NCBI GenBank assembly: GCA_000002445.1
Contig: CM000207.1
Span: 2,944,001 to 3,008,000, forward strand
DNA: 64,000 nucleotides
Source: Trypanosoma brucei
Taxonomy: Eukaryota
Reading direction: 5' to 3'
Below are positions 11,745 to 12,420 of this stretch, piece by piece. The notes beneath the pieces are model-generated. The model was given only the letters and a program-made list of their open reading frames with translations, did no database searches and had not been told where the DNA came from. Made by a program: the position numbers and the translations under genes. Every line of letters begins with the position of its first letter. The first letter of the stretch is position 1.

Positions 11745-12420
11745 ATTAGTATATTTACAATCATAGTACTATTCTGTCATTATTATCATTATTATTATCA
11801 TTACTGATTTATTGTAATATTCGTATATACACACTCACAACGCCTTTCTTTTATTATTATTATTATTATTATTATTATTATTATTATTATTATTATTATT
11901 ATTATTATTATTATTATTATTATTATTATTATTATTATTATTATTATTATTATTATTATTATTATTATTATTATTATTATTATTATTATTATTATTATTA
12001 TTATTATTATTATTATTATTATTATTATTATTATTATTATTATTATTATTATTATTATTATTATTATTATTATTATTATTATTATTATTATTATTATTAT
12101 TATTATTATTATTATTATTATTATTATTATTATTATTATTATTATTATTATTATTATTATTATTATTATTATTATTATTATTATTATTATTATTATTATT
12201 ATTATTATTATTATTATTATTATTATTATTATTATTATTATTATTATTATTATTATTATTATTATTATTATTATTATTATTATTATTATTATTATTATTA
12301 TTATTATTATTATTATTATTATTATTATATTCGTATATACGCACTTACAACAGTCTCATCCTATAATCATCATAACTGTTATTTTTACCGTTATAACTAC
12401 TATTACTATAAAACCATTAA
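11745..12420 (-). repeat. 70-bp repeat cluster in reverse orientation, containing an expanded triplet tract.
   Basis: Core-like units CGTATATACACACTCACAACGCC (11822-11845) and CGTATATACGCACTTACAAC (12323-12345) flank a pure (TTA)n tract. Confidence 0.7.
11835..12344. repeat. Perfect (TTA)170 microsatellite, which reads as (TAA)170 on the strand of the minus-oriented VSGs.
   Basis: An uninterrupted 510-bp ATT/TTA triplet repeat. The six-frame track shows the artefact 169-aa poly-Asn ORF. Confidence 0.95.

Follow-up and report, generated by a model that had tools for sequence, protein, structure and literature searches.

The question raised by this locus is what a long and perfectly regular run of TTA triplets is doing among genes for the variant surface glycoprotein (VSG), and how far its length is to be believed. 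The window, by which we mean the whole 64-kb stretch of DNA that was analyzed, carries the run as TTA on the plus strand, that is, as TAA on the minus strand, which is the strand of the nearby VSG genes, and the description below follows that strand. The reading we favor, with a probability of roughly 0.85, is that the tract is a slippage-expanded (TAA)n allele of the known 70-bp element at the 5' boundary of a silent VSG cassette in strain TREU927. Features of this type go back in the literature to 1984-85, and it is only the length of the window example that stands out. The features concerned, listed in the gene sense, are the following:

12699..14150, minus strand: next VSG upstream in the gene sense (VSG_B, PF13206, E = 1.4 × 10−44)
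12330..12351, minus strand: core of unit 1, GTTGTAAGTGCGTATATACGAA, the distal or upstream unit in the VSG sense, with 2 mismatches to the core consensus
11851..12328, minus strand: perfect (TAA)159.3 tract, 100% A+T, the expanded triplet part between 70-bp units 1 and 2
11820..11841, minus strand: core of unit 2, GTTGTGAGTGTGTATATACGAA, with 0 mismatches
11735..11819, minus strand: remainder of unit 2, ATATTACAATAAATCAGTAATGATAATAATAATGATAATAATGACAGAATAGT, together with degenerate unit 3, placed by alignment with the other units
9200..10825, minus strand: VSG pseudogene served by the cluster, recognized by translation, VSG structure matches, and 3'-end homology

Extent and purity of the tract

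An exact period-3 scan of the sequence finds the perfect run at 11851-12328, a length of 478 bp, with TTA repeated 159.3 times on the plus strand, and Tandem Repeats Finder gives the tract 100% matches and 0 indels. An earlier note on this DNA had described it as (TTA)170, 510 bp long, at 11835-12344. That the tract is pure and uninterrupted stands, but the length and the coordinates do not; the longer interval takes in 16 nonrepeat nucleotides at each end, CTCACAACGCCTTTCT at the left and TTCGTATATACGCAC at the right, and these are sequence of the flanking 70-bp units. The core positions given along with it, 11822-11845 and 12323-12345, overlap that same interval and are thus inconsistent with it. 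A perfect microsatellite of 478 bp cannot have arisen by chance.

Besides this tract, the longest pure triplet run of any type in the window is 6.0 copies by the exact scan, and a looser count of TAA-type runs at the other cores in the window gives 0-7 copies, with about 7 as the maximum. The statement that the triplet component runs to 3-6 copies elsewhere in the window is therefore essentially borne out, the pure runs reaching no more than 6.0 and the looser count at cores going to about 7. Both run counts likewise uphold the claim that no other core in the window has a triplet run anywhere near this length.

The 70-bp repeat cluster around the tract

With the reverse complement of GTTGTGAGTGTGTATATACGAA as the core probe over the whole 64-kb window, 8 cores of the 70-bp repeat are found where 0 are expected by chance. 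Two of them, at 11820-11841 and 12330-12351, abut the TAA tract, so that the proposal of core motifs on both flanks is confirmed at these positions. An alignment of 12 units, drawn from the window and 2 comparison loci introduced below, gives the canonical consensus ...ATAATAATAGGAGAGTGTTGTGAGTGTGTATATACGAATATTATAATAAGAG..., in fuller form ATAATAATAATAATAGGAGAGT-GTTGTGAGTGTGTATATACGAA-TATTATAATAAGAG.... Every well-conserved unit has a (TAA/TGA)n segment 5' of the core, and at this cluster that segment is the 478-bp tract. The cores on both sides and the unit alignment thus agree with the earlier identification of the tract as the triplet (TAA) component of a 70-bp repeat cluster.

Tandem Repeats Finder reports a period-74 array at 11734-11899 with 2.3 copies, and in combination with the unit alignment this makes the cluster at the tract one of 3 units. 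The tract starts 1 nt past the unit 1 core, directly after GAATAT (junction at 12326-12329), and unit 1 is without the approximately 20 nt that usually follow the core, the consensus segment TATAATGAGAGCAGTAATGA. The missing segment could mean that expansion set out from the ATAATAA immediately 3' of the core, or that a deletion went along with it. At the other end, the linker AAAGAAAGGC (11842-11851) joins the tract to the unit 2 core, and downstream of that core the 3' half of the unit is normal. Unit 3 is degenerate, with a core-like ACTATGATTGTAAATATACTAA at 11767-11746. The order on the minus strand is then the 3' end of the upstream VSG, a spacer, unit 1, (TAA)159, AAAGAAAGGC, unit 2, degenerate unit 3, a spacer of about 0.9 kb, and the VSG pseudogene. 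All four of the marks by which a 70-bp repeat is recognized are found here, namely the core, the AT-rich triplet segment, the position and orientation relative to a VSG, and the clustering in 1 to 3 units, a feature confined to genomes of the T. brucei group, to which TREU927 belongs.

VSG genes on either side

Downstream of the cluster in the gene sense, the VSG pseudogene on the minus strand has its ATG at 10825 and an in-frame stop at 10774-10772, in the signal peptide. The ORF for its N-terminal domain is at 9749-10768 on the minus strand, the C-terminal part is frameshifted, and a VSG 3'-end homology region at about 9203-9453 is similar to other VSG cassettes. The N-terminal ORF has no Pfam match; against PDB it matches VSG397 (8b3e) at E = 4.9 × 10−9 and VSGsur at E = 4 × 10−4. 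The VSG397 match and the in-frame stop in the signal peptide bear out the earlier description of a neighboring VSG pseudogene, and its placement of the tract upstream of that gene is also right, at a distance of about 1 kb in the same orientation. Measured to the pseudogene ATG, the tract is 1026 bp away and unit 3 about 910 bp. A second ORF without a Pfam VSG match is at 31207-32676 on the plus strand, where VSGsur (6z7c/6z79) is matched over the full length at E of about 7 × 10−18; the VSG subclass of these 2 ORFs is missed by the Pfam models.

On the other side, the VSG at 12699-14150 has a C-terminal end that by eye seems frameshifted, and between its 3' end and unit 1 there are about 250-350 bp, which places the tract in the spacer between cassettes. 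At 80% identity, the VSG adjoining the tract resembles VSGs of T. brucei EATRO1125. The VSG_B domain is recognized by Pfam in ORFs throughout the window, and the intact VSG at 43326-44927 is identical at 533/533 positions to a TREU927 protein annotated as "variant surface glycoprotein (VSG, atypical), putative". Judging from its sequence, the window represents a silent VSG array on a T. b. brucei TREU927 megabase chromosome.

Comparison with other loci

A long pure tract at the same place in the repeat is found in the long-read assembly of T. b. equiperdum IVM-t1 (GCA_003543875.1, QSBY01000016.1), where cores are at 1693-1714 and 1852-1873 and a perfect (TAA)36 at 1737-1844 separates the first two units of a 3-unit cluster. 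This locus shares with the window tract the core-(TAA)n-core layout, the position between the first and second units, and a purity of 100%. It differs in having 36 copies versus 159, in keeping GAGAGCAGTATTTA after the core, and in belonging to an unrelated VSG cassette. Since IVM-t1 carries (TAA)36, a long pure tract at this repeat position is not unique to the window.

The second comparison locus, from T. equiperdum OVI (CZPT02001055.1), has short triplet runs only. Its scaffold gaps (N runs) at 11895-11904 and 19394-19422 are within or beside 70-bp repeats and triplet runs, which suggests that the assembly breaks at 70-bp elements and would hide long TAA tracts there.

Taking the window and the 2 comparison loci together, a small sample of 16 cores in about 107 kb, the core-adjacent TAA runs are 159 copies, 36 copies, and for all other 14 runs no more than 7 copies, and the (TAA)n length accordingly varies between loci. 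The 2 long tracts each abut 2 cores. The premise that the triplet part of 70-bp repeats is normally short was overstated, given the (TAA)36 of IVM-t1 and a publication of 1984 that already has (TAA)90 in its title. A search of the literature for a relevant genome-wide survey of TAA length, or for trypanosome work under the term "TAA repeat", found none.

Relation to the known repeats

According to a 2018 review, 1-3 70-bp repeats are found near about 90% of VSG genes (PMC6237402), and the distance from a 70-bp repeat to a minichromosomal VSG is about 1.5 kb (PMC4858185). The window cluster has much in common with the 70-bp (76-bp) repeats of T. brucei (Liu 1983; Campbell 1984; Hovel-Miner 2016, PMC4858185): the same core GTTGTGAGTGTGTATATACGAA, the same AT-rich triplet segment (TAA/TGA) on the 5' side of the core, the same orientation with about 1 kb to the downstream VSG, and the same organism. 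Its 3 units are within the 1-3 typical of array VSGs. It departs from the typical repeats in having about 159 copies between cores versus about 3-7 at others, and in the structure of unit 1, where about 20 nt after the core are gone and the tract follows GAATAT.

The loci associated with the names Campbell (1984) and Aline (1985) reportedly have long pure TAA with 70/76-bp units on both sides and a chromosome-internal VSG downstream. The titles from 1984-85, as cited in PMC4858185 and PMC6237402, speak of (TAA)90 flanked by 76-bp repeats. The title of Campbell, van Bree & Boothroyd (1984) puts (TAA)90, flanked by 76-bp repeats in tandem, upstream of a basic-copy VSG gene, and that of Aline et al. 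(1985) puts (TAA)n near several intrachromosomal VSGs. As far as these titles describe the type, the window tract is alike, being pure TAA bracketed by repeat units, and it shows the whole combination of a pure (TAA)n in tens of copies, repeat units on both flanks, and a chromosome-internal VSG. It comes from another strain and locus than the example in the Campbell title and has about 1.8-fold more copies than the 90 named there.

Physical properties

In nearest-neighbor terms the tract has a duplex stability of −0.82 kcal/mol per step, compared with a window mean of −1.32, which makes it the weakest duplex in the 64 kb and puts it about 4 standard deviations off the mean (the standard deviation of 100-bp windows being 0.12). 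Segments of 478 bp elsewhere in the window reach at most 76% A+T. When 150 nt of either strand is folded, no hairpin results, the minimum free energy (MFE) being 0 kcal/mol and worse than 200 of 200 shuffles. A hairpin-forming expandable triplet of the CAG/CTG or CGG/CCG type is ruled out by this MFE of 0 on both strands. A cruciform is rejected as well, the sole inverted repeat around the tract being a chance-level pair of 20 nt with 80% identity between arms 1 kb apart.

Because neither strand folds into a hairpin, the tract is unlike the hairpin-type triplets and closer to a DNA-unwinding element. TTA.TAA is said to have been described by Ohshima in 1996 as "non-H-bonded" DNA. With the AT-rich fragile microsatellites and unwinding elements (Ohshima 1996; PMC6765107), the tract shares its pure A+T composition and very low stability, although the (AT)n tracts form hairpins or cruciforms and the window TAA tract cannot. 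The sequences of human common fragile sites are rich in AT dinucleotides (PMC6765107). The low duplex stability fits the published idea of an unwound TTA.TAA, and the exceptionally low stability that goes with such a non-B structure is found here in the weakest 100-bp window of the 64 kb.

How the tract may have grown

In the reading of the tract as a slippage-expanded allele of the 70-bp element, the TAA run between units 1 and 2 would have grown to about 159 copies. The growth may have come about by replication slippage, by out-of-register exchange between TAA runs in 70-bp repeats that are sisters or paralogs, or by both. Purity would be upheld by continuing slippage and not by selection, and it is to be expected if the tract is a long, actively slipping microsatellite. 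What the surrounding element has been shown to do is provide upstream homology when VSGs are copied by duplicative gene conversion into the active expression site, and in functional terms the tract may be a passenger within this element. A long stretch composed of A+T only probably unwinds with ease, and it may retard replication forks or differ in length between clones. Published work has 70-bp repeats guiding donor selection, with homology as their demonstrated role, and leaves open what the triplet repeats do (PMC4858185).

Could the assembly be wrong?

The first alternative, which the earlier note also mentioned, accepts that a tract exists and puts the error in its length or purity as given in the reference, and we hold it to be unlikely though deserving of attention. 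In the TREU927 reference, which we take to be clone-based and of the Sanger era, a pure AT microsatellite near the Sanger read length could have been mis-assembled, or its length could have changed in E. coli clones. There are precedents: the remaining gaps of Sanger expression-site assemblies are all in 70-bp repeats (PMC2567434), the scaffold gaps at the OVI locus are inside 70-bp repeats, and a plasmid carrying (AAT)24 yielded in E. coli a deletion product of (AAT)8 (PMC3000339).

At the present locus, however, the junctions are coherent, running core-tract-core in the orientation and register seen in IVM-t1, there is no N run, vector, or chimeric join, and a filler would be a round number, which 478 bp is not; it is on these grounds that a long tract is credible. 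The independent examples of (TAA)90, as far as the 1984 title goes, and of (TAA)36 in IVM-t1 show that such tracts are real. Assembly and cloning errors are also more likely to shorten a tract of this kind than to lengthen it, and because a collapse or deletion would imply that the true tract is longer, not shorter, the qualitative finding survives. The assembled copy number should be treated as approximate.

Could the tract be a fragile site?

A second alternative, the idea of the earlier note, gives the tract an active function as a fragile site or recombination hotspot, where unwound, non-B TTA.TAA would stall forks or break and make its position in the array recombinogenic. In its favor are the lowest duplex stability in the window and published work: the (TAA)n within each 70-bp repeat is unstable, and this instability has been proposed to stall replication forks and create breaks (Barry 2012, PMC3467770). 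After RNAi against ATR, more gamma-H2A is seen on 70-bp repeats and near VSGs outside the expression sites (PMC6988115), and R-loops are concentrated on the 70-bp repeats (PMC10691351). For breaks within the BES1 70-bp repeats, BLISS gave "no clear evidence" in the same work that mapped the R-loops (PMC10691351), so the published evidence for breakage at 70-bp repeats is mixed.

What is seen at the locus itself argues against such a function. Self-BLAST of the tract flanks within the window finds no duplication or rearrangement breakpoints, the output being noisy with the tract unmasked, and returns only the generic similarities of 70-bp repeats and VSG 3' ends. The absence of a hairpin on either strand takes away the usual fork-blocking structure of the disease-type triplets. 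Moreover, the locus is silent and is on the donor side, next to a pseudogene; if switching starts from lesions in the active expression site, as we infer, a break at a silent locus would not by itself promote switching. We therefore regard a functional fragile site as improbable. A more particular version, in which the tract of about 159 copies is a true length-polymorphic allele that unwinds or stalls forks and biases array rearrangement or mosaic VSG conversion, is less probable still; if it were true, the triplet part, and not the core alone, would tune which archive genes recombine. Given that ATR depletion makes gamma-H2A accumulate over 70-bp repeats and around non-expression-site VSGs (PMC6988115), the tract may yet play a more active part, as a fragile site, than that of a passenger. 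Nothing in this analysis shows that the extra length gives the locus a special role.

Readings set aside

A mechanically called ORF on the minus strand coincides exactly with the 11835-12344 of the earlier note and is unbroken over 169 codons (VRIYEY-N158-KRKAL, 169 aa plus stop), but as a protein-coding poly-asparagine gene it is effectively refuted by its GTG start in place of ATG, by its make-up of 158 Asn plus 6 and 5 residues from 70-bp-repeat sequence, and by the lack of any Pfam match even at E ≤ 1, the ORF being a trivial product of the AAT frame in a TAA repeat at a site inside a noncoding recombination element. An origin from a retroelement poly(A) tail or target site was also set aside, the tract being a trinucleotide repeat bracketed by 70-bp cores and not an A-run.

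Significance

What triggers VSG recombination, and what the triplet part contributes, are open questions in the field of antigenic variation (PMC6237402, PMC4858185). A catalog of loci with extreme (TAA)n would offer natural test cases in which breakage, R-loops, and donor usage could be compared between long and short tracts. By itself, the single locus only adds a further and longer case, in a public reference genome, to a layout that has been in print for forty years, and in practice it serves mostly to urge caution when VSG arrays are assembled or reads are mapped to them.

Other features of the array

The VSG cassettes of the window are on the minus strand at about 1-16 kb, on the plus strand at about 22-48 kb, and again on the minus strand at about 49-63 kb, giving 2 orientation flips, and the orientation of the 70-bp cores tracks that of the genes across the window. 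At the first flip there are 2 adjacent ORFs at 16884-18665 on the plus strand, one of which, at 17688-18665, has a reverse transcriptase domain by Pfam (RVT_1, E = 4.5 × 10−36); the pair is probably a degenerate ingi-type retroelement.

The VSG 3'-UTR 16-mer TGATATATTTTAACAC has 8 sites in the window at ≤2 mismatches, compared with 0.11 expected. These are at 5944-5959, 37435-37450, 54368-54383, and 61398-61413, plus 4 weaker ones; at the same setting the 16-mer is absent downstream of both VSG pseudogenes flanking the tract. A 25-bp tandem repeat, AATGAAAAAATACGAAAAGAAAGGA, is present in 2.5 copies with 97% matches at 30047-30109, in the interval from the 70-bp core at 29757 to the VSG that starts at 31207.
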